IMG/VR virus record: IMGVR_UViG_3300042862_000073 | Coordinates: 1-56,794 of that record | DNA length: 56,794 bases | Strand: one strand, 5' to 3' | Source of the DNA: a virus | Taxonomy: Duplodnaviria; Caudoviricetes | Shown: piece by piece, positions 22,558 through 54,452 of the stretch | Layout of the letters: every line of letters starts with the position of its first letter | How positions within the stretch are numbered: position 1 is the first letter of the stretch | Made by a program: the position numbers and the translations under genes | The notes under the pieces: model-generated | Told to the model about the DNA's origin: nothing | The model's input: the letters and a program-made list of their open reading frames with translations, nothing else | The model's database searches: none

Positions 22558-25500
22558 CTACTTTAATGTTGAGTTCAAAAAGTCTTGATATTCCTGTTGG
22601 TTCTTATATCCAAGCATCTCTAGCATCTCAGGAGTTAATGTTCTAATGTGATACTTACCTTTTATTAGATTTTCAGATGAAACATCAAATGCTGCAATTC
22701 CTCCTAATGATTTATACTTCAATGAATTGTCAATCTTCTTGGAAATTTCAGATCCAGGTACACCTGTCGCGTAAAGAGATGTAGCATACTTTCTAATATC
22801 ATCCTGCATTCTCCATAGGTGAACATTTGCCTGATTGATATTTTCTATATTCTCTTTTAGGAAATCCTTTCTAATATTATCGTCACCCTTTCCCTTAGCT
22901 TTAATCATAGCCTGCTCATACTTATACTCAATGTTGTTTATCTCATTAAGTTGTTCAGTAATTTTAGGAGTGTAATTACCTTGTAATTTACTTGAGAATG
23001 AATTTAACGTATTTATCTTCTGCTCTTTAAATCCTAGAAACTCACTTCTTAAAAGCTCTCCTGTTGTCTTTTTACCTTTATCATATTCAGGATCAACACC
23101 AACAGAATTATATAAATCATATCCAAATGTAGCAATACCAGGGACAAGATTTCTCATAGCCCACGGTGTAGCGTCAGAGAACTTCTTATACCACGGATCC
23201 ATTTCATCGTATAGCTTTCCACCTCTACCATCATCATTACTATCCCATTGTTTAGCTATCGTATAAACACCCTCTTGACCTAGGAATGGTTCTAATAAAG
23301 CCCATGCCCCCTGCATAGTAGGGTACTTTTCAGGATCGTATTTATCAGTTCTAACATATGCGTTACGTGCCTTGTAGAATAGGTTCCAAGGGTTTAAGAA
23401 GTCAAGCTCAAATGCAGTCATTTCACCCGGCTTACTTCCTGTGATTAATCTTGAATTGTTCTTAGCGTAATCGGGAGCCCCTTCATACAATACTCTTTCC
23501 TCATCTTCATCAGGCGGTTCAACTCCAGTTAAAGCTTTGATAAGACCTGCTCCAACCAATCCCCCTAGTCCAGAAGCTAAAACACCAGTAGATGTAAAAC
23601 CAACTAATCTTCTAACTCCAATTAATGTTTGCGCTACATTCTTGTTTTTAGCTCCTTCCGTTATATCTCGAATAGCCATTCTAGGGATAGTAATAGCTGT
23701 TCTAATAGATTCAGAAGCAAAGGTTGGGAATGTACCTACAAATGGCGAAGCCGCTAGACGCTTAACTATATTAGGAGCCTTATCATAGGTAACGTGTGTT
23801 TCTCTGAATCTTTCGGCTGCCAACTTTTTAAGTTCAGCATCAGACAAATTAGGAAACATCTTCTTACAGTCGTCAAGCTCAGACATATATGCCGTAACAC
23901 GCCATACATTATCCATAAACTCATATACTTTTGAAGCTGTAGCTCCCGTCTTTTTAACTGCAAACTTAGCTTTATCTACAATAGAATCAGTATCTTTAAT
24001 AGACTCAATTCCATCGTCATATATTGAACTTACAAAACCAGTAACGGTATCTTTTAATTCTTTAGACATACCACTATTAATAACTCCTAATGCAACAAGT
24101 TCATTGTTCATCTCACTAGGGTTTCTGAATAGTTCTTTTACAGCAAGAGATATACCTCCACCCTCTTTCCCCTTACCAAAGCTAATCATATTACCTAAAA
24201 GGCGGCCATTAGCTGTTTGGAAGAAGAAGTTAGACGTAAAGTTACGTATGGTTGTCTTGATAGACCCAACAGTTTTGAAGGCCTTCCAGTATGAAGCTAC
24301 ATTCCTAAGCAACTCAACTTTCATAGAGTTGTCTGTGCCTCTTAATAGGTCTGCAATCTCAGGCGTAGTATAAAGACCAGCCATTGGACTATAGGTATCA
24401 GTACCTGCAATCTGCTCATTAAAATCAACAGTAGGCTTGTCAAAGAAGATTTTGTTCATGCCCATATCCTTGAGCTTATTCAAAAACTTCTTGTTCTCAG
24501 CATACTTAATCATGTTCTCCATTGTGTGGTAGAACTTCTGAACCGGATCTTTGTACTCTCCGAAGAAGGCACGTAGTTCAGGTGGCATGTCTTGGCGGCG
24601 TTTCAAAAGATCGTCTACCGCTGTCCCCATCTTACCCTTCATCTCTTGTAGAGGGTCCTTCTGTTCATTGCTTAATCGAGCATACTCCTTTAGTTTAGCG
24701 TCAGCTTCCTCGGGACTTAAATTATATTCACCTGTAATATAATCTATAGCCTGACGATAAACAGCATTCATCTCTGGGCTTCTTCCCGACTCTTCAAAAT
24801 TAAGCGGAGTATTCTTTCCTTTAGGAAACATAGATTCGTTCCAACGTGAGTCCTTAAATGCGGCGTAACCACGATTCAAATAGATCCCCATATTTGCATC
24901 TATAATACCATATAGTTCAGATGTTGGATCAATACTAGCTTGAATCTCTTTTGACAGAGCGTCAATAGAAGCTCTCATCCTTTCAACGGTATTCATAAGA
25001 TCCGTAGCTGTTGGATACATAGCTTTTAAATCGGCTATATCCATTGCTACTAGCATTGGTTTACCGCTTGATGATAACGCTGGTCCTGCGACTTGTTTAC
25101 CACCTAAATAATCACTGATATTTTTTATTAAATCATCCTTCTCAGCATCAGTCATGTCCTTCGTAAAATCCTTGAAGTCATTTCTGAACTTGAATACGTT
25201 ATCTCGAATCTGCCTCATATCTCTTTCGATAGTATTAGCTCGTTCGATATTCATTTCGGTTATCTTTTTTTGGTAGGCGGTAGAGAACCAGAACTTCAAC
25301 ATTGACTTAGCATTGCTAAAGTTTCTAGGGACCATAGTCTTAAACACGCGAGTCTTACCCATTTTGGAAACCGCCTTATCCATCCACCCTTGTTTAGCTC
25401 CAAGTAGTCCACCTGGAACACTAATAAAAGGACCGTTATTTATTATATCCTGAAGATCTAAATTAGACACGGTAGATATAGGCTTCGAACCCATCAAAGA

Positions 25501-26913
25501 TTTACCTGCAATATCTGCGTAGTCTTTAATAGTCATCTCAAGGAAGTCGTAATTCTTAGACATTCCAAACACCTTGTTTAGAAACTCTCCAAACTTCTTG
25601 ATAGCATCTCTAATCTTTTGACCAAAGGTTCTATCATTGTAGGCGTTTGCCCTATCTTTAATTGCCTCTGCGGCTGCACGTTGTAGGATCTGCTCCTCCG
25701 ACATTGCCGGGAAGCCTTGAGCCTGCATATCTGCATCAGCCTGTCTTGCGTCTGTTTCGTATTGCGTACCCTTAACTGCCTCAATCATCTGCTTATATAC
25801 GGCTGAATCCTTGCCCTTTGCAAGCTCCATCCATACATAACCTAGACTTGTGATAGAAGCATCATCGTTGGTTGTTGCAACTGGGTCAACGACAACCTCT
25901 CCGTTATTTACAATAGCCACTACGTTACCTGACGCGTCAGTAATACGTACTGATTCAGGGTCCGAAAGGAGCTGATTAAATCTATTTCCGTCTATCTGAA
26001 TATTAACATTTGGAAGAGAGGATATTGTTGCATTTACAGCACCTTGAATGTTTGACAAGTTAGGTGTGACTACACCTGTTGTCTGCTCTTTTGATTGAAC
26101 TGATGGGTCTGTTATTTGTATCTGATTGTTATTGAAAACAATATAGCTATCATTCCCCTTATCTTCAACAGTATTTGAATAGACAATGCCATCAAAACCC
26201 TTGCTTTTTAAATAGGCTTCTATCCATCTGTTTTGAACATCAACTCTTGCTGCTGAAGGATATTCTTGAGGCTCATCGCTTAATACTCCATCACCATTTT
26301 CATCATAGACAGTTTTTAAATTGTCATCGTAAAAATCATCAATGTCTGTTTCAAAAGCTGCTGAAACATCTTCAGAAAGAGTACCTTTATCAACTCCTTC
26401 AAATATTTTCTTCAGAACTTCATATCCCTTCCATGAAGGCATCCTCTCAAACTCTTCTAGTCTAATTGGATTCTTAATATCTATATTAACTGAAATTGTT
26501 CTTGGATTTGAAACATCTATGGATTTTTTTCTAGATTCAAAATCTGGATTTGTTTCAAAATTAACTAAATCGTCTATTCTGTTTTGAGCAGCACCACGTG
26601 TTCCAAAATGATATCCAACATCATAATTTGTGGAATTAGCTAAATTAAATTCCGTAAAAGGAGTTGCTCCCTTAGGTGTAAATGTTCCGTGATATAAAGT
26701 TAATGGATTACCATTTTCATCTACAACTGTATTTCCAGAAGCCGCTGAAAACATTTGCTCCTTAGACCTAATAGAAGGACTTGACACCACTTTCATTGAA
26801 GGAATGTCAATGCCCATATTCTTAGCATCACGGTCAAACTCTCCGGCAAGCATAGCTGCCTTTAGCTCCGATTCCGTGAACTCCTTTCCGTTATAGTAAT
26901 ATTTACAAGCCAT
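22558..26913 (-). CDS. Giant virion/ejection polyvalent protein with ART-PolyVal-like domain
   Basis: 1451 aa; VVDENGNPLTLYHGT, GYHFG, IKNP, GFDGIVY, YIVFNNNQI; degenerate zincin region; helical C-terminal ejection-protein-like region. Confidence 0.75.
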   Translation of the reverse strand: MACKYYYNGKEFTESELKAAMLAGEFDRDAKNMGIDIPSMKVVSSPSIRSKEQMFSAASGNTVVDENGNPLTLYHGTFTPKGATPFTEFNLANSTNYDVGYHFGTRGAAQNRIDDLVNFETNPDFESRKKSIDVSNPRTISVNIDIKNPIRLEEFERMPSWKGYEVLKKIFEGVDKGTLSEDVSAAFETDIDDFYDDNLKTVYDENGDGVLSDEPQEYPSAARVDVQNRWIEAYLKSKGFDGIVYSNTVEDKGNDSYIVFNNNQIQITDPSVQSKEQTTGVVTPNLSNIQGAVNATISSLPNVNIQIDGNRFNQLLSDPESVRITDASGNVVAIVNNGEVVVDPVATTNDDASITSLGYVWMELAKGKDSAVYKQMIEAVKGTQYETDARQADADMQAQGFPAMSEEQILQRAAAEAIKDRANAYNDRTFGQKIRDAIKKFGEFLNKVFGMSKNYDFLEMTIKDYADIAGKSLMGSKPISTVSNLDLQDIINNGPFISVPGGLLGAKQGWMDKAVSKMGKTRVFKTMVPRNFSNAKSMLKFWFSTAYQKKITEMNIERANTIERDMRQIRDNVFKFRNDFKDFTKDMTDAEKDDLIKNISDYLGGKQVAGPALSSSGKPMLVAMDIADLKAMYPTATDLMNTVERMRASIDALSKEIQASIDPTSELYGIIDANMGIYLNRGYAAFKDSRWNESMFPKGKNTPLNFEESGRSPEMNAVYRQAIDYITGEYNLSPEEADAKLKEYARLSNEQKDPLQEMKGKMGTAVDDLLKRRQDMPPELRAFFGEYKDPVQKFYHTMENMIKYAENKKFLNKLKDMGMNKIFFDKPTVDFNEQIAGTDTYSPMAGLYTTPEIADLLRGTDNSMKVELLRNVASYWKAFKTVGSIKTTIRNFTSNFFFQTANGRLLGNMISFGKGKEGGGISLAVKELFRNPSEMNNELVALGVINSGMSKELKDTVTGFVSSIYDDGIESIKDTDSIVDKAKFAVKKTGATASKVYEFMDNVWRVTAYMSELDDCKKMFPNLSDAELKKLAAERFRETHVTYDKAPNIVKRLAASPFVGTFPTFASESIRTAITIPRMAIRDITEGAKNKNVAQTLIGVRRLVGFTSTGVLASGLGGLVGAGLIKALTGVEPPDEDEERVLYEGAPDYAKNNSRLITGSKPGEMTAFELDFLNPWNLFYKARNAYVRTDKYDPEKYPTMQGAWALLEPFLGQEGVYTIAKQWDSNDDGRGGKLYDEMDPWYKKFSDATPWAMRNLVPGIATFGYDLYNSVGVDPEYDKGKKTTGELLRSEFLGFKEQKINTLNSFSSKLQGNYTPKITEQLNEINNIEYKYEQAMIKAKGKGDDNIRKDFLKENIENINQANVHLWRMQDDIRKYATSLYATGVPGSEISKKIDNSLKYKSLGGIAAFDVSSENLIKGKYHIRTLTPEMLEMLGYKNQQEYQDFLNSTLK

Positions 26914-27391
26914 TAGCTAACTCTTGATCAAAGATAATAAACCCACATGTATCGTCCTTCAAAATTTCATAGCGAGCCATCAAGTCACCGTATTCGCCAA
27001 CGGCCTTACGCTGAATCTTGATGAAGTCTAGAAGAATCTCCTGACAAACAGGATCCGCCTTCTTGTAGAAATCTGAATAGAAGTTCAATAGGTCTATTTC
27101 ACTCTCAAGAGCAATAGCCAAAGCATCGCCAATAGATTCAACCTTATCCTCGCACGCAGGCATCGCAGGCATTCCGCCTAGGATACCAACATCATTCAAA
27201 AAGTTCACGATAGTTTGGAAGTGGGATAGCTCGTCAGCACTCTCCGCCTGGAAGAATTTGAACGCCCCCAAATAACCAATCATTTGCATCTGATTAGAGA
27301 TGTGACGGTATAGGTGTGAAACATACATTTCACGGTATAGAGCGTCCTCAAATCCTGAGATGCACTCCTTTGATATTAATTCTGTTTTCAT
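26903..27391 (-). CDS. Ferritin-like protein
   Basis: 162 aa; RE.Y.SHLY, GAFKFF.AESADELSH, ALESE, F...Q pattern of non-haem ferritin. Confidence 0.85.
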   Translation of the reverse strand: MKTELISKECISGFEDALYREMYVSHLYRHISNQMQMIGYLGAFKFFQAESADELSHFQTIVNFLNDVGILGGMPAMPACEDKVESIGDALAIALESEIDLLNFYSDFYKKADPVCQEILLDFIKIQRKAVGEYGDLMARYEILKDDTCGFIIFDQELANGL

Positions 27392-30300
27392 TATAATCCG
27401 CAGATTTTAGTTATTCCTAGTTTTTCAGCGATGTCCTCAAAGTTATCACTTATTTGCTTTGCTTTGTCATAATTTTCACCTAATATTTCACGCTGTGCTT
27501 TTATTTCGGCGGCTTTCGAAACTCCACGCTTCTTGGATATTACATCCATAGCAGACACGGCTTTTTTAGCACTATCAAGAATCTGATCTCTCCTTGCTAC
27601 TTCCTCAGTAGATTCTAGAGTAGGTCCGTAAAGTCTTTCAGCGTATGGTATTCTTGAACGATCTTCTGCATTTCTAGCCTCAACTTCACCAGCCATGCGT
27701 CTATATTCATCATATGCTACCTGCTTGATGACATTTTTAGCAATAACAGATTCAACAAAAAGTTTAGCTCTATCTAAGTCCTCTTTTGCTAAATCATCTA
27801 TACTTTCAAGCATGTTGTTGTCGCTTCCTATATACTTTAATATCGCTTCGGGATTTCCAGAATACAACTCTTTATCGTATTTAGAATTAGCAATGTCCTC
27901 AAGAGATGTTCCGTAAGTCATCATTTCAAGCACTTCATTAACAGCTTTAGTTACTGCTGCTCCTACTGTTTTAGAACTACCTAGAGAAAACCCTGGTATT
28001 TTGTAAACATCTTTAGATTTAGAAAATTCATCAGCCTTATCATCTACATTTCCACCATACTCAAAGCCTTCTCTGTCTTGAATATAATGTTGAATCTCAT
28101 GTATTAAAGTTCTTCTAAAACCATCTATACCCTCATTTTCAATTGCTTCTGGACCAAATTCAATTAAGTTTCTGCTAGTTCTAAATACGGCAGCAGCATT
28201 TCCAAGGTCTGGATTTACAGAGAATGTCACGTCAGATAAATAGGGATACGCTTCTTCTAGCTTCCCCAAGTCTAAAATATCGGTTATTGGAGCCGGAGGA
28301 TAATTTTCATTAGCTCTAACTCTAACACCTTCTTTTTTAGCATTCTCCTGAAGGTAGAACATTATATCAAAGTCGCTTTCAATATCCTCGTTTAATTCAA
28401 CGTCCGGATATTCATATCTCCATTGTCCATCTGCTCCTACTTCCCATCCTGTTGCTGCCTTAATATCTTGAGCTGCTCTGTTGGCGGCTTCCATATTTTT
28501 AGCTACATCTAAGTCCTGCATTGCAATATCATCAGCAGCCGTTTCAACACCTACTTGACCTACGATTGCTTCTTTACTTCCATCTTTCGCACCTGATTCA
28601 CGTGGTCGGAATCTATAATCTGTTTCAAATGCCTTACCTACATTTTCGGCAGCCGCTGTAATATTCTCACCCCCCTGTCCTGTAGACATTGCAGATGAAA
28701 CGGTATTAAAGAAGTCCATAAGTGACTTCGTTTGTGCATTAGCTGTAAATGGAATTAGTGTTCCTTTAGTTATACGAGAAACAAACTCATTGATAAGGTT
28801 CATTATCTTTTGAGCTGTTGTCGGTGTCAACTTTTCACGGTTGGCTGTCATAAGACCTGCTAGCTGAGCCATAAACTCCTCTGGTCTAACATCTTTATCC
28901 GTGTACTGATTAACGAAAGCATCAAGCTCTGCAACTCGACTAGCTGAAAGGGCCTTCAAGATTCTACCCTGAAACTCCTTAAACAACTCCGGATTATCTC
29001 CGAATGCATCCATAAGGATTAGGTGGGTAAACTCGTGTGGAGCTGTATCAGTACCTGCCTTTTCCATGTTAACGTGTACGGCAATAACATTACCCTTATC
29101 GTCATATTGGAAGGTTCCTGCACCTGTTCTAGCCATTGATTCACCACCTGTAATTGCGGTAGCCGCCTCCATGTCAGAAGTCGTTTCATGTACATAAATT
29201 GGTACGTCTCCGTAGGCCTTACGAATTGCGGTAGCCGCACGATCAATGCTGGATACTAGCGCACGCTTTCCACTATCACCCTTAAATTTAGCTAGCAGTG
29301 CATTTTTTCTTGTGGCGTCAAAAACTTTTGGTTTAACTGCACGCACACCTGCTGCTGGTTTAGCTTCAGTTGTCGGGACTTCTGCAACAGGAGTTTCCAC
29401 TGCTGGAGCTTCTACTGTTGGCCCCTCTTCAACTACAAGAGGCTTTACTTCTTGTGTTGTTACTTCTGTAGTCTCTGATACTTGAGGAGTAGTAGTTCTT
29501 TCAACAAACTTCTTAAAACCTTCTAAATCCTGCTTAGTACCTAATATATAAGCCTGCTTTTCTGAAGATACTGCGTAAGTTTTTCCCTCCGTCTGACCTA
29601 TATCTTCACCAAAAACTGTATCATTTCCCTTTTCAAAAGACTTCTTTGCACGAGCATACATTATATCCTGTTTACCCTCTCTGTTCTCAACATTGTTAGC
29701 GTTGATGATTACCGGATATACTTTTGCAACGCCGCCCGTCTTAAATTGTCCCTTAGCATACTCAGGATTGTTTGTAGCGAATATAGCTCCACCCTTTCCA
29801 TATTGATCGGAAACTCTTGGCTCAAACTTCTCTAGGGTTGGATTATCACTACCATGATACAAAATATCCTTTACTTTACTATCTGGAAATATAGTTTCAA
29901 GATATGCAGAGTACTGCGCTGGAGTTCCAATAGAAGCAAGATCAGGAGTAGAATCAAATAATTCTTGCACCCCTGTTTTAGGTGCTACTTCTTCTTTTTT
30001 ACCAACTTCTTGGGCAGTTTCTTCCCCTTGGACGCCTGGTCCCATTCCTTGAGGTTTACCCCCTGTTTCTGTAGTTTCTCCTTGTTGGCGTGGAAGAACT
30101 TCCTCTGTGCTTCGCTTTTGTATGGCATCTCTATCTGTTTTAGGGTGATAAAAGGAATCTGCAAAGGCAGTGTCCTTTAAACTTGTTTTTATATACTCAT
30201 CTGCTTTTTTAGCAACTTCGGCGGCGTCCAAATCTAAATCTTCGCGCGGCTGAATTACATAGGTTCCATCAGGATTAACAGCGACATTTCTAACGCCCAT

Positions 30301-33300
30301 AGCCATTAGATTATCATCGTTGTACATTACCGGCTTAGTAGCACCGTAATCCTTTTGTCCTGTTAAATAGTCGTTTATATCCTGATCGTATTGAGCTAGA
30401 GTCGTTTTAACAGCTTCGGTAGTTACACCTACCTTTCTAGCATTATCTTGAATCTGATTCTTACGATAGGTTAAAGCCATTACAGCATCCTGATTTGCTG
30501 TTGTTAACTCTGTAAAACCAGGCATAGATTGAAGCGCATTCCATGTTTCTGAAATACCCGTCAACTGCTTCTCAATTTCCTTAAAGGTAGCGTCGCCAGG
30601 ATTAACTCCATTGCTTTGCGTCTGCTCAATAACTTTTAAAATGTCATTAGCATTTTTACCCATGTAGGATAGGTTCTGCATCTGTGTTTGAGACATCGGT
30701 CTAAGACCTCCGAAGAATCTCATTCCACCACCCGTAATAAATCCAGCAACTCCATTGTCTGTTATATTCTTTGCCTGATATAGATCTTGGTATGGGTTAG
30801 TCTTATATGTTGCAGGTCGAGTGCCATCCATATTGAATGTAGTTACCCGGTTGTACAACTCATTGCTGATATCCTTTCCTAGGTCGGTAGATAATGCTCC
30901 TAAGGCTTCCTCACCAAACTCTTGAGCACCACCCTTTACTGTGTTCTTAACAAGCTCGTCAATTTTACCTAGGCCCTGTCTTAATAGAGCATTACCTCTA
31001 ATCCCATTCTTATATGAAGCTATTAGACCTGCTCTTGTAGCTACGTTGTCAAAATATTTAATATCAGGTACTGCCTGTTCAGCAACAGCTTGAAGTGATG
31101 CAATTAAAGTGGCGGCTTCCGCAGCATCGTCTTGCGATAGACCTGAACGCAAGGCCTCCTGATATGCCTGCCCTTCCATCATTAAGAAGGCTCCGGTAGT
31201 ATTCACACCAAAACGTCCAACAGTAGCTAGTTTACCTGCTCCCGAAAATAACTTTCCGGCAGCCGCACCTGGAAGAGCAAACGCTCCAACACTACCAATC
31301 CCCTGACCTAGTGTTTGTGTCAATTTAGCAAATTCAGGAAGATCATCTGCCTTGCCATCTCCGTCAATATCCATCCCTGAATACCCGTATAGGTAGTCGC
31401 GGTTATTCTGTGCTGTTTCTGCTCCGTAATAAACCCTATCCGCCCATCCGTAACCATCTCCAACTTCCAATACTTCTGAAATAGGTTTAATAGACTTGGC
31501 TGTTTCAAGGATAACCATATCCGTAAAACTTCTCCAAGCATCCCCAGTTCCGTATACAAGACCACCTAGAACAGGATTTTCAGTAACCCATCTTTGGCGA
31601 TTTTCCATGTTCTTTTCCTTCTGCTTTTCAAATGCAGATATAGGAGCAAAATTGCTATTGTTTATAGCTAGATTCTGTTGTACCTCCGATTGTTTTGAGT
31701 ATCGATTTAAATCAAAATCAGTTACTCCCGTTTCCTTTTGAACCTGTTGGGCACGAGTTGTTAGCTCCTGTTCTTTTAATTTTAACTGCTCGGCTCTTGA
31801 TTTGTATTCCTCCTGGGTAATAGTTCCTGAATTAAACGCTAGACGCAAGGCATCTACGTCTGATGAAAACTGCTTAACATCATTAATTATAGGCTGTATA
31901 TCAGTCATGTACTGACGAACCTGTCTGTCGGAAGCGTTCTCTATTGTTCTGTCTAGTGGAGCGTATGAAGATCCAACAGCTTCAGCTCTTAATTTTCTTA
32001 GAAATTCAGTGTCAGCTTGATCTATTCCAATCAAATCTTCTAAATTACCATCACCTTCAAAGATGATATTTTGTTTTCCACTTGAAATAAGGAAATTATT
32101 GGCATCCTCCCACGTTTCAAACCCCTTTTTGTTAAGGGCATTCATCACCTCCCAATAGCGTTCAGAATATTCTTTATGTTTATCAGGATCCGTCTTTTCT
32201 AGTACGGATAAGTAGGTAGCCTCAAGATTCTTGTATGAATACTTCTTTCTGTTCTCAAGCTCCTGCTTTTTAGTAGTATAATACTGCTCATCTACCTGAC
32301 CATTTTTCCTCTGCTCCTCTAGTTCGGCAAGATCTCTCTCTGGTGTAGTTATATCTACCTGACTTACGGCTCTATATGTATCCCAATTCTTTTGATTTGA
32401 AGCTCTTTCTACTTGATTAGTATGAGCCTTCATTTCGGCGGTTTTGTTTTCTAGGTAGTCCTTGCTTTCCGCATCCACCTTTTTAGCAAACTCTCCCGAT
32501 GGAACCCAAACCTTCTTAGTTTTCATTCCGGGTTGAGTGGTTACCGTACCACCTTTAGCGGCATCAAAATATGTAGATCCGGCATCATACTCATTTCTCT
32601 CCTCCCATCTACCATTAGGGTCAATCGTTTTAGGATCTACTTTACCGGAATTTATTTGATCTAACTGATATTGAGCTGTTTGGAATGTAGGCTTTGCTGG
32701 TTGAGCAACTTTACCTGTTAATGTAACTCCAGATTCTGCTGCTTTTGATTCGTATGACCACGTACCATTTGTGTTTATATCAGATACAATACCTGTGTAA
32801 TCGTCTGCAATTTTCTTTAATTCTGCCTGAGATGCTGTTGAAGGATTAGCCTTTAACTCCTCCATATAATCTAGGAGCTGTGTTTCAGACGAGAATACCT
32901 TTTGCCCAGGCTCAGACGCCTTAGGGGCATTTAATGGACCTGTTGGCTTTGGTTTTTCCTTTGGTTTTTCCTTTTCCTGTTGAGATTTTGCATACGCAAC
33001 AGATTGAGCTACCTGCTCTGGAGTCTGAGGTGTACCCGACATTTTAGGCCCTGAAAGAAATTCAGAAGCCTGTTCCAAATAACTCTTACCTTGGGAAGGC
33101 TGCGAGCCACTTGACGGTTGGGTTTGACTTGAGCCATCCCCAGACTTTGGTTGCGTAGGTTCTTTTTTTTTTAAGCCCCCTTCAAATTCAGATTGGCTTC
33201 CAAATTTTTGAGACCCATATTTATTGTAAATATGAGCTACATATTTTGGATTAGAGTTTAATGCAGTCAAATACGCTTGGTAATCACCAAATATTGCATT

Positions 33301-33345
33301 TCCTCCATTTGAATCGTAAATCGACTTAGCTAATTCTTCGTTCAT
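27391..33345 (-). CDS. Giant virion/ejection polyvalent protein (ART-like, zincin and LPD23-like domains)
   Basis: 1984 aa; SKVKDILYHGS...ILGTKQDLEGF domain; HEFTH zincin; ATGW..GADGQWRYE, HEIQHYIQ..EGF..GG, AGEVEARN; Gly/Ala-rich hydrophobic middle. Confidence 0.78.
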   Translation of the reverse strand: MNEELAKSIYDSNGGNAIFGDYQAYLTALNSNPKYVAHIYNKYGSQKFGSQSEFEGGLKKKEPTQPKSGDGSSQTQPSSGSQPSQGKSYLEQASEFLSGPKMSGTPQTPEQVAQSVAYAKSQQEKEKPKEKPKPTGPLNAPKASEPGQKVFSSETQLLDYMEELKANPSTASQAELKKIADDYTGIVSDINTNGTWSYESKAAESGVTLTGKVAQPAKPTFQTAQYQLDQINSGKVDPKTIDPNGRWEERNEYDAGSTYFDAAKGGTVTTQPGMKTKKVWVPSGEFAKKVDAESKDYLENKTAEMKAHTNQVERASNQKNWDTYRAVSQVDITTPERDLAELEEQRKNGQVDEQYYTTKKQELENRKKYSYKNLEATYLSVLEKTDPDKHKEYSERYWEVMNALNKKGFETWEDANNFLISSGKQNIIFEGDGNLEDLIGIDQADTEFLRKLRAEAVGSSYAPLDRTIENASDRQVRQYMTDIQPIINDVKQFSSDVDALRLAFNSGTITQEEYKSRAEQLKLKEQELTTRAQQVQKETGVTDFDLNRYSKQSEVQQNLAINNSNFAPISAFEKQKEKNMENRQRWVTENPVLGGLVYGTGDAWRSFTDMVILETAKSIKPISEVLEVGDGYGWADRVYYGAETAQNNRDYLYGYSGMDIDGDGKADDLPEFAKLTQTLGQGIGSVGAFALPGAAAGKLFSGAGKLATVGRFGVNTTGAFLMMEGQAYQEALRSGLSQDDAAEAATLIASLQAVAEQAVPDIKYFDNVATRAGLIASYKNGIRGNALLRQGLGKIDELVKNTVKGGAQEFGEEALGALSTDLGKDISNELYNRVTTFNMDGTRPATYKTNPYQDLYQAKNITDNGVAGFITGGGMRFFGGLRPMSQTQMQNLSYMGKNANDILKVIEQTQSNGVNPGDATFKEIEKQLTGISETWNALQSMPGFTELTTANQDAVMALTYRKNQIQDNARKVGVTTEAVKTTLAQYDQDINDYLTGQKDYGATKPVMYNDDNLMAMGVRNVAVNPDGTYVIQPREDLDLDAAEVAKKADEYIKTSLKDTAFADSFYHPKTDRDAIQKRSTEEVLPRQQGETTETGGKPQGMGPGVQGEETAQEVGKKEEVAPKTGVQELFDSTPDLASIGTPAQYSAYLETIFPDSKVKDILYHGSDNPTLEKFEPRVSDQYGKGGAIFATNNPEYAKGQFKTGGVAKVYPVIINANNVENREGKQDIMYARAKKSFEKGNDTVFGEDIGQTEGKTYAVSSEKQAYILGTKQDLEGFKKFVERTTTPQVSETTEVTTQEVKPLVVEEGPTVEAPAVETPVAEVPTTEAKPAAGVRAVKPKVFDATRKNALLAKFKGDSGKRALVSSIDRAATAIRKAYGDVPIYVHETTSDMEAATAITGGESMARTGAGTFQYDDKGNVIAVHVNMEKAGTDTAPHEFTHLILMDAFGDNPELFKEFQGRILKALSASRVAELDAFVNQYTDKDVRPEEFMAQLAGLMTANREKLTPTTAQKIMNLINEFVSRITKGTLIPFTANAQTKSLMDFFNTVSSAMSTGQGGENITAAAENVGKAFETDYRFRPRESGAKDGSKEAIVGQVGVETAADDIAMQDLDVAKNMEAANRAAQDIKAATGWEVGADGQWRYEYPDVELNEDIESDFDIMFYLQENAKKEGVRVRANENYPPAPITDILDLGKLEEAYPYLSDVTFSVNPDLGNAAAVFRTSRNLIEFGPEAIENEGIDGFRRTLIHEIQHYIQDREGFEYGGNVDDKADEFSKSKDVYKIPGFSLGSSKTVGAAVTKAVNEVLEMMTYGTSLEDIANSKYDKELYSGNPEAILKYIGSDNNMLESIDDLAKEDLDRAKLFVESVIAKNVIKQVAYDEYRRMAGEVEARNAEDRSRIPYAERLYGPTLESTEEVARRDQILDSAKKAVSAMDVISKKRGVSKAAEIKAQREILGENYDKAKQISDNFEDIAEKLGITKICGL

Positions 33346-49706: not shown

Positions 49707-52016
49707 TTATAGATTACCTGATATTTCTACTTCTTTTTGCTTCTCCAAAGTACCTTCTTGTGCAAGCTCAGCCATTCTATGGTTGTGTTTAACTTGTTCA
49801 AGTAGCGCCTTTTGCTGATACTCGGTAAGCATTTGATCTGTTTTTAATTGTTGAACAGCCATGTCAGCTTGTGCCTTAGCTTGCTGAGCCATCATAGCCG
49901 ACTGTTGTTGCGCCTGTGCATTCATCTGCATCATCTTCTCCTTTTGACCTTGAATCTCGCGCTTAGAACGCTCTTCTGACAAAGTCAAATACCATGAAGC
50001 AAACTCATCGTTCCCCTTCTCAAGTTCCTTCTCTATAAATAGATAGTCACCCATTGTAATTCCAGGCTGACCGCTTTTACCTACTTTCATAGATTCTAGG
50101 GCGGCTTGCATAATTATCTGTTTGCGTTGAGCTGAAGGAGTTGAAACTAATGTGATTCCAATTTGGTCAAGAGTCAAATCCTCAAATGAATTTAAGGCAT
50201 TCATCTTCTCTTTACCTAATAGATTAGAATAATACTTCTCTACCTCTTTATCAAACTTAATATTCGTTCTAGTCATAAGGATAGCCTTTCTAGCAGCCTT
50301 CTCCTTAAATCTCATCAATGCCTTTTTAAGAGGATACATCGCGTGGTTAGTTGAATCAACTTCCATTTGAGCTAATCCTAATCCCTGTTCGGAATTATTT
50401 GTAGGTTGAGCAGCCATAGCAGGAGTAATACCTGCAAGGTCCATAATACGATTCATGTCATCCTGCCAGCAGGTTAACCATTCTTGAAGCTGTGGTCCTA
50501 TTCCTCCAGGAAGTTCCTGAATAGAGCTAGCTCCACCACCCTTGTTTAATATGTCTGTCTTAGACTGAATGAATTGATTACCTGTTTGACGGCGGATACG
50601 AATAAGCTCCAATGGAGTCATCTTACCAAATCCCATATCCATATTAGACAATAATCCAATATCAATCATAAGACCTTTAGGTGCTGCACTCCATTTAGCG
50701 GCTTGCAACTTAATCCATGTCAACATTAATGAGTCAAGATGCGGCTTCCATCTTTCAACGATAGCCTTTCCTGGGACACGCTCAAAGAAATAGCTTAAAG
50801 CTACGTTTCCTTTAGAGTCACGCATCATATTCTTTTGCATACCGTAATCGTAAACGAATCTAGTACCCAAAATATAATTTCCTGTGTACAAGTTCTGCAC
50901 GCAGGTTACGTCTGTCTTTCTCTTACGTCCGTCAGCATATGGCTTTTTAATAACGCCATACTCTTCAGGAGCATATACATAAGTTCCGTCCTTCTTCTCA
51001 CGACCTGTAAAATAGTCGTAGTCATTAGACTTGTATTCAAAGTGAAGAACTTCAACAACGAAATCCTCCCAAATATAACGTCCTGTTACAGGGTCCTTGC
51101 GATTGAAGTTAAAATCCTTATCGCTATAACCTTGAGTTTCATAATATATTCTCGCAAGCTGCTCGAGGTCTTGTGGACTAGCACCCAAATTAAGTAGCTT
51201 ATGCTTAATATCCTTAATTTGAACCCTCTCAATATGGCCTGCAAATGCCGGTTCTGCTTCTTCACTTTCGTCAATATATGCTGTTACAAATGCTGCTGGA
51301 TTAATAAACTTCATCTTTGTTGATCCATCATCATCAGTATAGACACGCCCAACGCAAAAATTAGTTTCAATTAATTTCTCAATTGTTCTCAATCTAATCT
51401 TATCCCAATCACTAATTTGAAATACGTGCTCTGCGATATCAGCCATTGCCATTTCCAACGGCAACTTAAAGCCATGATATCTCTCGTACATATCTAATTC
51501 CGTTTCGTTAGCAGGAACCCAAGGATAATCCTTAGTAGGGATTCCAATCTGCTCGCGTAGTGGATTGATTAGCTTATCATCATAATACAATTTCCACTTC
51601 TCATAAGCCTTTTGATAGCTAGCCTCCTGATTCAAAGATTCAACATGAACTTTAAAATCACTTGCGCTAAGCATAGACTTAATTGTAGAAATGAATTTAG
51701 GAGCAGGACTCACAATCTCATAACTAACGTTGGTATATGCCTTACGAGAATATTCTGTGAAGTTTCTATCCGTACTATTCTTATCATTCTTAGTTCCTAG
51801 GAACCAGTCGCGATACGGCGCTGAAGATTGTCTTGACTCGGCGTAGTCGGTCATCATTTGAAACCATCCTGTAGCACTATGGCCAAACAGGGTTCTTCCA
51901 TTATACCATCTTGAATAGATAGCTTGACCCACCTGGCTAATAAAGCTAAGCGACTCTTTTTGCTCTCTAGGTACATTATCGGACGGAAAACCGATTATTT
52001 CGCTGAATTTCAACAT
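49707..52016 (-). CDS. Portal protein
   Basis: 769 aa after TerL; FP.D.V....K start, PKF motif, Q-rich C-terminal helical barrel. Confidence 0.85.
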   Translation of the reverse strand: MLKFSEIIGFPSDNVPREQKESLSFISQVGQAIYSRWYNGRTLFGHSATGWFQMMTDYAESRQSSAPYRDWFLGTKNDKNSTDRNFTEYSRKAYTNVSYEIVSPAPKFISTIKSMLSASDFKVHVESLNQEASYQKAYEKWKLYYDDKLINPLREQIGIPTKDYPWVPANETELDMYERYHGFKLPLEMAMADIAEHVFQISDWDKIRLRTIEKLIETNFCVGRVYTDDDGSTKMKFINPAAFVTAYIDESEEAEPAFAGHIERVQIKDIKHKLLNLGASPQDLEQLARIYYETQGYSDKDFNFNRKDPVTGRYIWEDFVVEVLHFEYKSNDYDYFTGREKKDGTYVYAPEEYGVIKKPYADGRKRKTDVTCVQNLYTGNYILGTRFVYDYGMQKNMMRDSKGNVALSYFFERVPGKAIVERWKPHLDSLMLTWIKLQAAKWSAAPKGLMIDIGLLSNMDMGFGKMTPLELIRIRRQTGNQFIQSKTDILNKGGGASSIQELPGGIGPQLQEWLTCWQDDMNRIMDLAGITPAMAAQPTNNSEQGLGLAQMEVDSTNHAMYPLKKALMRFKEKAARKAILMTRTNIKFDKEVEKYYSNLLGKEKMNALNSFEDLTLDQIGITLVSTPSAQRKQIIMQAALESMKVGKSGQPGITMGDYLFIEKELEKGNDEFASWYLTLSEERSKREIQGQKEKMMQMNAQAQQQSAMMAQQAKAQADMAVQQLKTDQMLTEYQQKALLEQVKHNHRMAELAQEGTLEKQKEVEISGNL

Positions 52017-52076: not shown

Positions 52077-54452
52077 CTAATCAAAAAATTCTAGCAGGTT
52101 GTCCATAACTCTCGTTGAATTAGCCTCTTGCATATATTTAGGAAAGGCACTCTTAGCTCCAAGCAGAGCCATTCCTCCTGCGGCAAATAAGTCATAGTTA
52201 GTCATCTCGCTAGGGTCATTAATCTCAAGACACTCCTCTAAAAGTTCTATGTGGTTATCACCTTTCCCAAATAGGCGGATGTAATTCATGTACTCAGTAA
52301 AGATTTGTTCCTTGTCGGCTTCCGTTGTATATCGACCTGGAGCTTGGGCTAACTTCCCATTAGGATCTAAATCATTTAGTAGATATCCCTCATAACCCCA
52401 CTCACGGAACTTATCAATAACGATAGGCACGTTACGCTCAGGATAAACATGCGCTCCAAATAGAATAGCTAACTTCAACATATCCTCGCAATAGGTGTTA
52501 CCGTCATCAACACGAATGTTGTACGTTACAACAAATTTATTGCTTATCCATTGGTCAACCGGCTTATCCATACTATCAAATGCTGGATCGTGCTTATAAA
52601 ACATAGCACCACCACCATTAGACTTCCTACGGCCCTTCACGTCCCTGTTATTGAACTTAAATGGGTCACACCCTAATATGTATCTATTTACAACATCAGG
52701 TGAAGGATACCATGTGTTTGCCTCGCTATCGAAGTACTTCTTATTCCTCTGGTCCTCTGATGGTATATATGAAACAACATACTTTCCTTCCGGATCATCT
52801 GTAACTCTAACATTACTTCCAAATGCACCTACCCAATCTAATCTAACCGTTCTAGTTCTAAACAGTCGGTCAAACTTTAATTGGTTAATACGTGTTCTAA
52901 GAATAGAAAGGTCGAAGTTGTTATTCTTACTTGCTTTAGAGGCGGCTTCCTGAAGTGTCCAGGGGTTATCCCTAATCTCTCCATTTAATCGTAGGTCAAG
53001 TCCCTTCTCCTCTAAATCCTTTCTTGTATTCATTAAGATTGTTTTGGATCCTCTGGAAACCATGTTTCCCTCCAAATTTCTAATAGGCTCCATTGGATCT
53101 TCAATGATTGAGTTGCCGTACTCGTCCACACATTCGTCATAGCCGTCATATGCGGGGACGAAAAGGGTGTATAATCCGCTTGTTGTAAATCCGTTTTCGT
53201 TTCGCTCATCGTAATATGAAGATTTAATTAGATCAAAAAATTCTTTACCCCCACCTGCCTCGAACTCACCAAGTGTTGATGTGAACATGGCTAATCCGTT
53301 AATACGCAAACCTTGAGATAGACATTTACGAACAACGTCCTGCCATCTTCTTGGAATAGATACACCTGAGTCACCATGCTTACCACCCTCATCATCTAGA
53401 TAGGCGTGCAGCTTCTGTCCATCAAATGCCCTTTCACTAGATGCACGCGATTCAATCCAACCGTCATGGCTAGATATTCTATTTTGAGCTACCCCTTGTG
53501 TTCTTGCAGCAGGATATGTAAACGATAACTTTTCCTTTGGGAAGTCAGTTCCGTCATGAGCAGGTTTCAAAAAGAACGGTATCTTTCTCCAAGGTTTAAT
53601 TACCTTGTCTATATAAACGTCCTCCTTAGCCTGACGCTCTGTGATGGATTGTATTCCACCCTTCTGTTGTTTGCGTTCTGTTGTGATACAATACAATATA
53701 CAGGCGGCTTGCGAAGTTGCTCCAATACGGCGGCGTTTAGGAAAGATGTAACCATAGCAGGTTCTATATCCCATATCCACAACATATTTACCCTCATCAA
53801 CATAGGCTGCTGGATGCTTAGAAGCAAAATCTTCTGCATTCTTTACTCGTTGAAAGAACTTAGTTTTAATGTTACCCTCATTTCTGTAAGTAACCCTGTA
53901 TTTATAAACAGCCTCAGTTGTTGTATAGCAGTGCTTTGCAAAAATAAATATGCGGCGATCCAAATCTCGATACCACGGAAGTGAATCCTGTCGAGTTTCA
54001 TTTTGAATATCCCAGTAGTTAAGATAGATATAATGCCAACCATCTATGTATGTTGGCACTCCATTATTGAAGAACCAGTATCCCTGATAACGTCTTTTGA
54101 TTTGAACTTGAATCCACTCAATCTCATTTCTATACTCAAGTCGATTAGACTCCAACTCAGAATATATATCCTCCTGCGTAACAGCCTCCCTCTTCTTTAA
54201 CTTGTTCTTCTTCCGGATAATCTCTTGTATGCTCTTTAGCTTCTCAGGAACCTCCTGATGCTTAAACCTTTGATTTTTAGGATGCAGGCCATATCCATCA
54301 ATAAGTTGAATTGCCTCATCCCAATCTTTACCATAGAAGGATTCAACCGAAGGAAGCTTTATCTTAATCGTTTCAAGGATAGGGTCATGCTCGTGATACA
54401 CGGCATACTCTAGTTCCTGCTTATATTCGTTATGCCATTTACTAGTTGCCAA
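52077..54452 (-). CDS. terL: Terminase large subunit
   Basis: KRRRIGAT Walker A variant, YLDDEGGK Walker B, FTST coupling motif, ILGCDPF nuclease motif, late D..AAGGMAL. Confidence 0.92.
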   Translation of the reverse strand: MATSKWHNEYKQELEYAVYHEHDPILETIKIKLPSVESFYGKDWDEAIQLIDGYGLHPKNQRFKHQEVPEKLKSIQEIIRKKNKLKKREAVTQEDIYSELESNRLEYRNEIEWIQVQIKRRYQGYWFFNNGVPTYIDGWHYIYLNYWDIQNETRQDSLPWYRDLDRRIFIFAKHCYTTTEAVYKYRVTYRNEGNIKTKFFQRVKNAEDFASKHPAAYVDEGKYVVDMGYRTCYGYIFPKRRRIGATSQAACILYCITTERKQQKGGIQSITERQAKEDVYIDKVIKPWRKIPFFLKPAHDGTDFPKEKLSFTYPAARTQGVAQNRISSHDGWIESRASSERAFDGQKLHAYLDDEGGKHGDSGVSIPRRWQDVVRKCLSQGLRINGLAMFTSTLGEFEAGGGKEFFDLIKSSYYDERNENGFTTSGLYTLFVPAYDGYDECVDEYGNSIIEDPMEPIRNLEGNMVSRGSKTILMNTRKDLEEKGLDLRLNGEIRDNPWTLQEAASKASKNNNFDLSILRTRINQLKFDRLFRTRTVRLDWVGAFGSNVRVTDDPEGKYVVSYIPSEDQRNKKYFDSEANTWYPSPDVVNRYILGCDPFKFNNRDVKGRRKSNGGGAMFYKHDPAFDSMDKPVDQWISNKFVVTYNIRVDDGNTYCEDMLKLAILFGAHVYPERNVPIVIDKFREWGYEGYLLNDLDPNGKLAQAPGRYTTEADKEQIFTEYMNYIRLFGKGDNHIELLEECLEINDPSEMTNYDLFAAGGMALLGAKSAFPKYMQEANSTRVMDNLLEFFD

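Follow-up and report, generated by a model that had tools for sequence, protein, structure and literature searches.

A conserved A10 run in the giant polyvalent-protein gene of uncultured phages: a candidate dnaX-like slippage site with a predicted 86-residue isoform

Introduction

Bacterial RNA polymerases slip efficiently on runs of nine A or T, and the dnaX gene of Thermus thermophilus (tau/gamma; a run of 9 A/T) gives a truncated product in this way, mostly by the addition of at least one A (PMC5009743). The run lies inside a long open reading frame (ORF), the shifted frames stop soon, and two proteins with a common N-terminus result, one full-length and one truncated. In E. coli dnaX and in phage lambda G/GT, the latter being the classic frameshift case in phage structural modules, an in-phase slippery heptamer gives two products with a common N-terminus in a fixed ratio (PMC5009743). 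Here we describe a run of ten A's (A10) inside the gene for a giant polyvalent protein of 1984 amino acids (aa), on the minus strand of a 56,794-base (56.8-kb) stretch of phage DNA (Duplodnaviria, Caudoviricetes; IMG/VR virus record IMGVR_UViG_3300042862_000073; estimated completeness 86%), the whole of which is called the window below. The run is conserved among the relatives of the gene, and it is probably the site of a dnaX-like programmed slippage, with the polymerase as the favoured step, that would give a short isoform carrying the giant protein's N-terminal domain and a tail encoded in the -1 frame.

Results

The minus-strand context of the run reads GAA GGG GGC TTA AAA AAA AAA GAA CCT, and the A10 is formed by the third base of codon 58 together with codons 59-61; a preliminary description of the window had placed GGC TTA AAA AAA AAA GAA at codons 57-62, as can be read directly in the sequence. 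The in-phase heptamer A_AAA_AAA (pattern X_XXY_YYZ) occurs twice within TTA AAA AAA AAA. The run is the sole homopolymer of at least nine bases in the window, among 15 runs of at least seven. The structural genes of the window use AAA for 343 of 722 lysine codons, and none of their other four KKK triplets is all-AAA (AAG AAG AAG in three, AAA AAG AAA in the fourth). According to AlphaFold2, the run sits exactly at the border where the folded N-terminal domain (N-domain) ends and a disordered linker begins: five helices are modelled in residues 3-59 (predicted local distance difference test, pLDDT, 84-91), and the S/Q/P/G-rich linker that had been described after the run in frame 0 is modelled as disordered over residues 62-110 (pLDDT <50).

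A protein search with residues 1-420 gave 20 proteins, the query counted, and K59-K61 are invariant in all of these long homologues (20/20); four shorter homologues of residues 1-110, all contig-end fragments, are in frame 0 and carry KKK as well (4/4). On the DNA level, the relatives include L002, an IMG/VR contig whose giant protein is 43% identical to that of the window over its whole length, and six stretches from a scan of JGI metagenomes, four of which (L005, L006, L007 and L009) are close to the window; the remaining two (L004 and L008) are unrelated GC-rich repeats, and the single stretch from a scan of genome contigs (L010; 63.5% GC) is likewise unrelated. A search of a 1.84-billion-protein library with residues 1-110, an alignment of the N-domain and a further scan led to 13 loci, of which 12 reach the site (L002's contig, L011-L014, and the seven new contigs L016, L017 and L023-L027); L018 ends at its contig end before the site and was left out of the run count. 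With the window included, the sample for the run comprises 17 contigs from eight lineages; their N-domains share 26-43% identity with that of the window.

The run stands at the same place in all 17 contigs, as A10 in 15 of them and as A11 in two (L024 and L025, CAA AAA AAA AAA GGA), which corresponds to A10 in 7/8 lineages and A11 in 1/8. In all eight lineages KKK is written AAA AAA AAA (24/24 lysine codons), and the codon before it, for Leu, Val or Gln, always ends in A. The AAA share of lysine codons in the genes of these lineages is 0.46-0.82, and the chance of the run, given the protein and the codon usage of the own gene, is 0.05-0.21 per lineage (product over the eight lineages, 3.8e-9). 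No other homopolymer of nine or more bases occurs in the 116.7 kb of related loci. Homologues in which AAG codons interrupt the run, which the preliminary description had named as a refutation of its proposal, did not occur among the 17 contigs. Because the run is intact in 17/17 contigs and the product is 3.8e-9, it is conserved beyond what codon usage would give, which supports the view that it is a conserved and selected feature. Five pieces of Logan contigs from four lake metagenomes cross the run, three of them being variants with 17-25 differences from the window, and show no indel or substitution in it; as these data are assembled contigs, minority run-length variants are masked. Two of the homologues, P0007 and P0008, have KKKK instead of KKK at the site; this would agree with a run three bases longer (A13), provided that all the codons are AAA.

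One additional A leads from KKK into the -1 frame, in which RTYATKVWGWLKSNPTVKWLAAFPR follows (58+3+25 = 86 aa in total), and one A fewer leads into the +1 frame, in which 50 residues follow KKK (111 aa in all); both translations had been given in the preliminary description and are as claimed there. The -1 frame of the window has a stop three codons upstream of the KKK codons, with no ATG, GTG or TTG between, and in 8/8 lineages a stop of this frame lies a short distance upstream of the run, with no start codon between the two. Because of this upstream stop and the lack of a start codon before the run, the -1 ORF can be reached only by a shift. Among the positions of the giant gene, the -1 frame is open for at least 25 codons at 4.8% and the +1 frame for at least 50 codons at 4.4%.

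In family 1, to which the window belongs, the -1 tail and the position of its stop are kept in all six DNA sequences (the window, L002, L005, L006, L007 and L009). The tail reads RGYWTELALWLKSNPTIKWLRAFPRR in L002, RTYASKLWEWFKSNPTIKWLSTFPR in L005 and RTYATKLWEWVKSNPTIKWFAAFPR in both L006 and L007, and in L009, where the stop at the same position is TAG and not TAA, it reads RTYATRVWDWLKSNPTVKWFAAFPR. Within the tail lies a block of frame-0 codons 70-85 (GSSQTQPSSGSQPSQ) which, in the comparison with L002, has the highest nucleotide identity of 1511 windows of 16 codons (0.92; mean 0.545, standard deviation 0.118), and in which the codons are identical at 12/14 identical residues vs 408/812 in the whole gene (binomial p=0.0068). 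Two frame-0 replacements recur, S73N and P77Q; worked out by hand, both are silent in the -1 frame, and the other frame-0 replacements in family 1 lead to K/R and A/V exchanges there; replacements in the -1 frame itself are among V/I/L/F, on wobble bases of frame 0, or K/R. On the protein level, the linker residues 59-87, with the low-complexity stretch KKKEPTQPxSGxGSxQTQxSSGSQPSQ, are more conserved than the N-domain among the 20 homologues. The second most nucleotide-conserved window of the gene in the comparison with L002 covers residues 584-599 (QRWVTENPVLGGLVYG; 0.85 nucleotide identity, 85% identical codons).

A second, distant family (family 2) offers a comparison in which the nucleotide sequence has diverged. 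In a patch between L013 and L012 where 13/33 nucleotides differ, the -1 frame retains 6/11 identities and 9 positives (BLOSUM sum 35), whereas frame 0 retains 2/11 identities and 5 positives (sum 5) and the +1 frame 4/11 identities and 5 positives (sum 13). Also in family 2 (L013:5904-5936; alignment A3, columns 267-299), a small conserved island directly follows a diverged patch and contains the stop of each shifted frame, TAA and TGA, 7 nucleotides apart in GCGTAACAGTTGATA. Over the eight lineages the -1 ORFs are 20-43 codons long, above the mean of a synonymous-codon null in 7/8 (Fisher p=0.004).

The +1 frame behaves differently. The length of its tail after KKK varies between 28 and 83 residues in the closest family and between 7 and 83 over all lineages, its ratio of non-synonymous to synonymous change (pN/pS) is 1.61, and its ORF is not longer than in the synonymous-codon null (p=0.16), so that the 111-aa product, proposed earlier on an equal footing with the 86-aa one, did not hold up. 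The proposal that both tails form amphipathic helices failed as well: the best helical moment of the -1 tail was matched or beaten by 1530/3000 shuffles in an 11-residue window and by 2319/3000 in an 18-residue window, the corresponding numbers for the +1 tail being 881/3000 and 325/3000, and the -1 tail is modelled, from a shallow alignment, with a pLDDT of ~50. The -1 tail of the window is basic, with three Trp residues and a charge of +5/0 after KKK; its peptide has no Pfam match and a single PDB match with an E value of 1.1.

Shifted forms are also present among the public proteins of the library search. P0030 (87 aa) consists of exactly an N-domain of a second type, KKK and this -1 tail, and its cluster-mate P0038 (87 aa), which has a different sequence and comes from another source, is likewise composed of an N-domain and this tail, so that the product with one A more, whose tail and stop are conserved in family 1, also exists as a called ORF in two public assemblies. 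P0033 from family 2 carries a tail in the +1 frame, and P0035 a tail after KKK that looks out of frame. The shifted public ORFs mean that some assemblies contain one A more or one fewer. The 24 remaining protein clusters are all in frame, and a search with P0030 for further short shifted ORFs returned only its own 2-member cluster. Of about 26 database entries of the window's own family, only two show the short -1 form, and both have the look of broken genes.

The N-domain has a conserved pattern of Y10, G14, G15, F19, G20, Y35, G44, G49 and K59. It has no match to a Pfam family and none in the PDB by Foldseek; a VIA-wide comparison returned assorted small helical domains (best Z 3.8), which is not meaningful. 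The ESM Atlas gave best scores of 0.86-0.87 with clusters of viral hypothetical proteins of 56-61 aa, a weak lead only. In P0026, P0031, P0034 and P0037, as in the window, the N-domain resembles a tandem duplication of a motif of ~29 aa, Y[IL]xx[IL]Yxx.GGxxxFGxYxx[FY]xxL; the two copies are near-identical in family 2, e.g., DDKYIKDIYDNLGGESVFGNYNDYYSLIT and DDSYIKDIYDNLGGESVFGSYNDFFSLVK in P0031, and P0027 (1987 aa) matches query residues 5-28 in six stretches. P0036, a called ORF of 76 aa, contains a complete N-domain without KKK and ends in TIAKRPKYSKLNISKLKKYF; this may be an N-domain gene that stands alone, or a further mosaic form. Residues 1-150 of P0001-P0024 are arranged as a mosaic around the slip cassette, with at least two types of N-domain (MNEELAKSIYDSNGG... 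and MNEEY[LI]...) and several downstream segments, and the junctions lie at the borders of the common KKK-linker block (window positions 33085 and 33175-33213). Among the mosaic variants, the sequence changes a short way upstream of the run in X19 record 9 and directly behind the -1 stop in X20 record 11.

The features of the locus are collected in Table 1. The giant protein contains the Pfam domain LPD23 (PF18838) at residues 1604-1648 (40.2 bits vs a cutoff of 27), has a weak SprT-like match (17.9 bits, below the cutoff of 25.6) and carries two HEXXH motifs (H1437 E1438 H1441; H1749 E1750 H1753) that are invariant in 20/20 homologues. The gene is part of a minus-strand structural module with a terminase (52077-54452), a portal (49707-52016), collagen-like tail fibres and several virion structural proteins. 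A second giant gene (22558-26913, minus strand; 1451 aa) encodes a protein with an ART-PolyVal ADP-ribosyltransferase domain (32.7 bits vs a cutoff of 31.2), which also matches a PHROG virion structural protein, and between the two giant polyvalent genes lies a gene for a ferritin-like protein of 162 aa (26903-27391, minus strand; PF00210, E=2.9e-11) whose ends overlap both. Because of LPD23, the sub-threshold SprT-like match and the neighbour with ART-PolyVal, we assign the giant gene to the phage polyvalent proteins in the sense of PMC5512222. The protein is probably packaged in the virion, and 'ejection', as the gene was labelled in the preliminary description, is inferred from its polyvalent class and domain content together with its gene context. 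No ORF of the size of a T7-like RNA polymerase stands out in the ORF list of the window, no search having been aimed at one and 14% of the genome being missing.

Table 1. Coordinates of the giant gene, the candidate slip site and the overlapping reading frames (positions in the window)
Feature	Position	Strand	Remarks
Giant polyvalent virion-protein gene	27391..33345	-	1984 aa (P0001), frame 0, ATG at 33345; ORF list and translation
N-terminal helical domain, aa 1-58, common to the long and the predicted short product	33172..33345	-	AlphaFold2, conserved pattern
Candidate A10 slip site, TT[A AAA AAA AAA] G, codons 58-61	33163..33172	-	T10 on the + strand
-1 frame tail, 25 codons (RTYATKVWGWLKSNPTVKWLAAFPR) and TAA at 33086-33088	33086..33163	-	No entry except through a shift at the run
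Nucleotide block of extreme conservation, frame-0 codons 70-85 (GSSQTQPSSGSQPSQ)	33091..33138	-	-1 frame W[LFVI]KSNPT[VI]KW[LF]xxFPR
Frame-0 disordered S/Q/P/G linker, aa 62-110, hosting the overlapping frame	33016..33162	-	AlphaFold2 pLDDT about 50 (46-53 per 10-residue block)
+1 frame (A9) tail, 50 codons and stop at 33009-33011	33009..33161	-	Unsupported as a selected product

All known members of the giant protein's family come from viral metagenome contigs of lakes and other environments. A DNA search of the phage collection, for near and distant relatives, with 2.5 kb around the site gave no match, nor did tblastn of three N-domain regions (window, L027 and L023) against cultured phages; the whole giant protein matches cultured phages, among the matches listed, through its C-terminal part only (residues 1598-1923). 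A search for related loci with the giant protein alone gave none, and a scan of viral contigs with an exact 20-mer and with degenerate patterns of frame 0 and of the -1 peptide found only L002's contig.

Discussion

The evidence from the two families suggests that the 86-aa isoform is a selected product in its own right, and that the run is a selected recoding site giving the -1 product; we regard this as rather likely, though well short of certain. Most transcripts and ribosomes would pass the A10 unshifted and give the 1984-aa protein, and a fraction would be shifted there into the -1 frame. The likeliest cause is slippage of RNA polymerase over the ten A:T pairs, by which the mRNA gains one A; a -1 slip of the ribosome on A_AAA_AAA may contribute, and its protein would be identical to that of the A11 mRNA. 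Translation would then stop 25 codons after the run, and the short protein, composed of the N-domain, KKK and the basic Trp-rich tail, would keep the folded part and exchange the disordered linker for the tail. Its function can only be guessed: it may be a partner, an adaptor or a competitor for the binding target of the N-domain in the packaging or ejection of the giant protein. Membrane binding, the setting of cargo stoichiometry, a role in the ejection channel and three proteins from one gene, all put forward in the preliminary description, are speculation. We infer the occurrence of slippage, the responsible step (polymerase or ribosome), its rate and the role of the short protein from the sequences compared here.

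Several points weigh against this interpretation. The pairwise pN/pS over the overlap is 0.51 in frame 0 and 0.75 in the -1 frame, which is not decisive, the sample being small and the method biased for overlapping frames; as both frames look constrained, it is consistent that pN/pS fails to separate them. The eight lineages behind the Fisher value of 0.004 are not fully independent, for the window and L002 share the conserved block, and the -1 tails of different lineages cannot be aligned with each other. The basic and aromatic character of the tail follows partly from an acidic, Ser-rich frame 0, where GAN is read as xGA and gives R or G. AlphaFold2 models the -1 tail of P0030 with a pLDDT of ~50, a value that says little because the alignment had only four sequences, and P0030 and P0038, which come from short contigs (1592 and 938 nucleotides), may be homopolymer sequencing errors, DNA variants or RNA-derived. 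The 22 sequencing runs listed for the locus include no RNA run, so that slippage itself is unobserved. E. coli RNA polymerase is reported to slip poorly on poly(A), with nothing below eight A's and a bias to poly(T) (PMC6260861), and robust sliding of ribosomes in vitro required A11, with weak sliding at A9 and A10, a threshold that was obtained in the E. coli PURE system and may not be that of the host (PMC4363877). RNAalifold places a stem, with a covariation term of +1.2 and disrupted in L002, at least 20 nucleotides downstream of the run, and no common structure or Shine-Dalgarno (SD)-like element was found at canonical spacing in the eight lineages; scans for terminators, promoters and Rfam families around the site gave no hits.

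The main rival, ahead of phase variation on the DNA level, is that the run serves as an attenuator of expression only, i.e., slippage or sliding would abort part of the translation early and limit the synthesis of a costly 2000-aa protein that is required in low copy number, and the shifted peptides would be functionless by-products. Iterated AAA codons are described to cut protein output through sliding and premature termination (PMC4363877, PMC4552401), and the early position of the run at codons 58-61, the -1 tails that cannot be aligned between lineages and the lack of a confident fold or family match for the tail would all agree with such a role. An attenuator, however, predicts an unconstrained shifted frame or quick stops, whereas the -1 ORFs are longer than the null, the -1 peptide and its stop are conserved at an overall protein identity of 43%, and the patch in family 2 is best conserved in the -1 frame of the three; in addition, the sliding on which it would depend is weak at A10. 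We therefore consider attenuation alone unlikely.

Another possibility is that the same 86-aa product arises by programmed -1 ribosomal frameshifting alone on A_AAA_AAA, with no slippage of the polymerase. The two in-phase heptamers in the run and the identity of the product with that of an A11 mRNA would fit, and in bacteria that have a single tRNA-Lys this tRNA tends to shift on A-rich sites (PMC5009743). Seven A's would be enough for the ribosome, yet ten are kept in 8/8 lineages, including the preceding wobble A, and there is neither a conserved structure 5-9 nucleotides downstream nor an SD-like element upstream, the contexts differing among lineages. These two observations, the length of the run and the missing hairpin or SD-like stimulator, are among the reasons why slippage of the polymerase is favoured. 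The conservation of ten rather than seven A's fits the 9-10 bp of the RNA:DNA hybrid. Two further reasons come from the literature: bacterial RNA polymerase slips on runs of nine, mainly by addition, and one added A leads into the -1 frame, the one for which selection is indicated, and the ribosome of E. coli slips far less on A_AAA_AAA than on A_AAA_AAG (PMC5009743). A purely ribosomal origin of the 86-aa product thus appears improbable to us.

Slippage could also occur during replication, in which case the A10 would be a contingency tract that toggles the giant gene within phage populations, e.g., for escape from host defences that sense the protein. The ORFs of indel form in public assemblies (P0030 and P0038 of the -1 type, P0033 of the +1 type, and P0035) might be such variants, and the KKKK of P0007 and P0008 is consistent with a 3-base expansion. 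Against phase variation, 17/17 contigs and 5/5 Logan pieces are in frame without any indel (with the reservation that contigs mask minority variants), as are the 24 other protein clusters, the search with P0030 led no further than its own cluster, and the run length is fixed at 10 or 11; moreover, the off state of a gene in the structural module of a lytic phage would hardly select a conserved tail, and we regard this explanation as very doubtful. Least credible of all is the absence of any recoding, with KKK required in the protein and the nucleotide conservation due to a mosaic recombination junction or to RNA or DNA structure, because, although the block is flanked by varying combinations of N-domain type and downstream segment and the window at residues 584-599 has a high codon identity too (0.85), a requirement of the protein does not explain 24/24 AAA codons together with the wobble A, no covarying structure, Rfam hit or terminator is present, and the substitutions favour the -1 reading frame in two families.

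If the 86-aa isoform exists as proposed, each member of a family of giant virion proteins whose N-domains are down to 26% identical would be accompanied by a hidden small protein, and standard annotation is blind to such a short product. The small protein might then be a packaging adaptor, a chaperone or a setter of copy number, as in a G/GT system turned round to serve ejection proteins. For phage structural genes, the known cases of recoding are mainly the tail chaperone G/GT and a few capsid genes. The finding also provides a handle on the assembly or dosing of unstudied proteins of 2000-3500 aa, and suggests an annotation rule, namely a T-A10-G run directly after the N-domain. In its widest form, our interpretation is that an ancient, clade-wide slippage switch lies at the border between N-domain and linker of giant injected proteins in uncultured aquatic phages, and that every such gene makes a small protein, consisting of the N-domain and a cationic aromatic -1 tail, which acts together with the giant protein; this is put forward tentatively, the odds being somewhat against it.

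Comparison with Known Systems

The class of mechanism is already known from dnaX, and what is new is the gene family, the position of the site and the conserved tail. The giant protein itself agrees with the phage polyvalent proteins of Iyer et al. 2017 (PMC5512222) in its giant size and multidomain make-up, its LPD domain, its HEXXH metallopeptidase-like motifs and the ART-PolyVal protein encoded next to it in a phage with portal and terminase. The words 'frameshift' and 'slippage' do not occur in the main text of that paper, and full-text literature searches found no description of slippage or frameshifting in these giant polyvalent proteins.

Slippage on A/T runs in genes of secretion or injection machines has been reported for Shigella spa13 and mxiE and for Citrobacter tssM, where it leads to two length variants (PMC5009743, PMC4256274); there the DNA frame is interrupted and slippage restores or extends it, whereas that of the giant gene is intact and slippage would truncate the product. 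The poly(A)-track attenuators share with our site the consecutive AAA lysine codons, which are normally avoided in coding sequences, but, as described in PMC4363877, they need A11 or more for robust sliding and come without a conserved shifted peptide. With E. coli dnaX and lambda G/GT the site has in common an in-phase slippery heptamer, here of A's, and two products, in our case predicted, with a common N-terminus (PMC5009743). It differs from both in the heptamer, which is A_AAA_AAA within A10 and not A_AAA_AAG or G_GGA_AAG, and in the lack of a conserved 3' hairpin or 5' SD-like stimulator; furthermore, the shifted product is the short one here, whereas the shift in lambda G/GT extends the protein.

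The closest parallel is Thermus dnaX, which has the arrangement that is proposed here, an A run inside a long ORF, with A's added by the polymerase, early stops in the shifted frames and a full-length and a truncated protein of the same N-terminus (PMC5009743). Unlike the clamp-loader gene of Thermus, the gene in the window encodes a phage virion polyvalent protein, and the shift would occur after only 61 of 1984 residues. In place of the near-immediate stop of Thermus dnaX, it would be followed by a -1 tail of 20-43 residues that is conserved within families.

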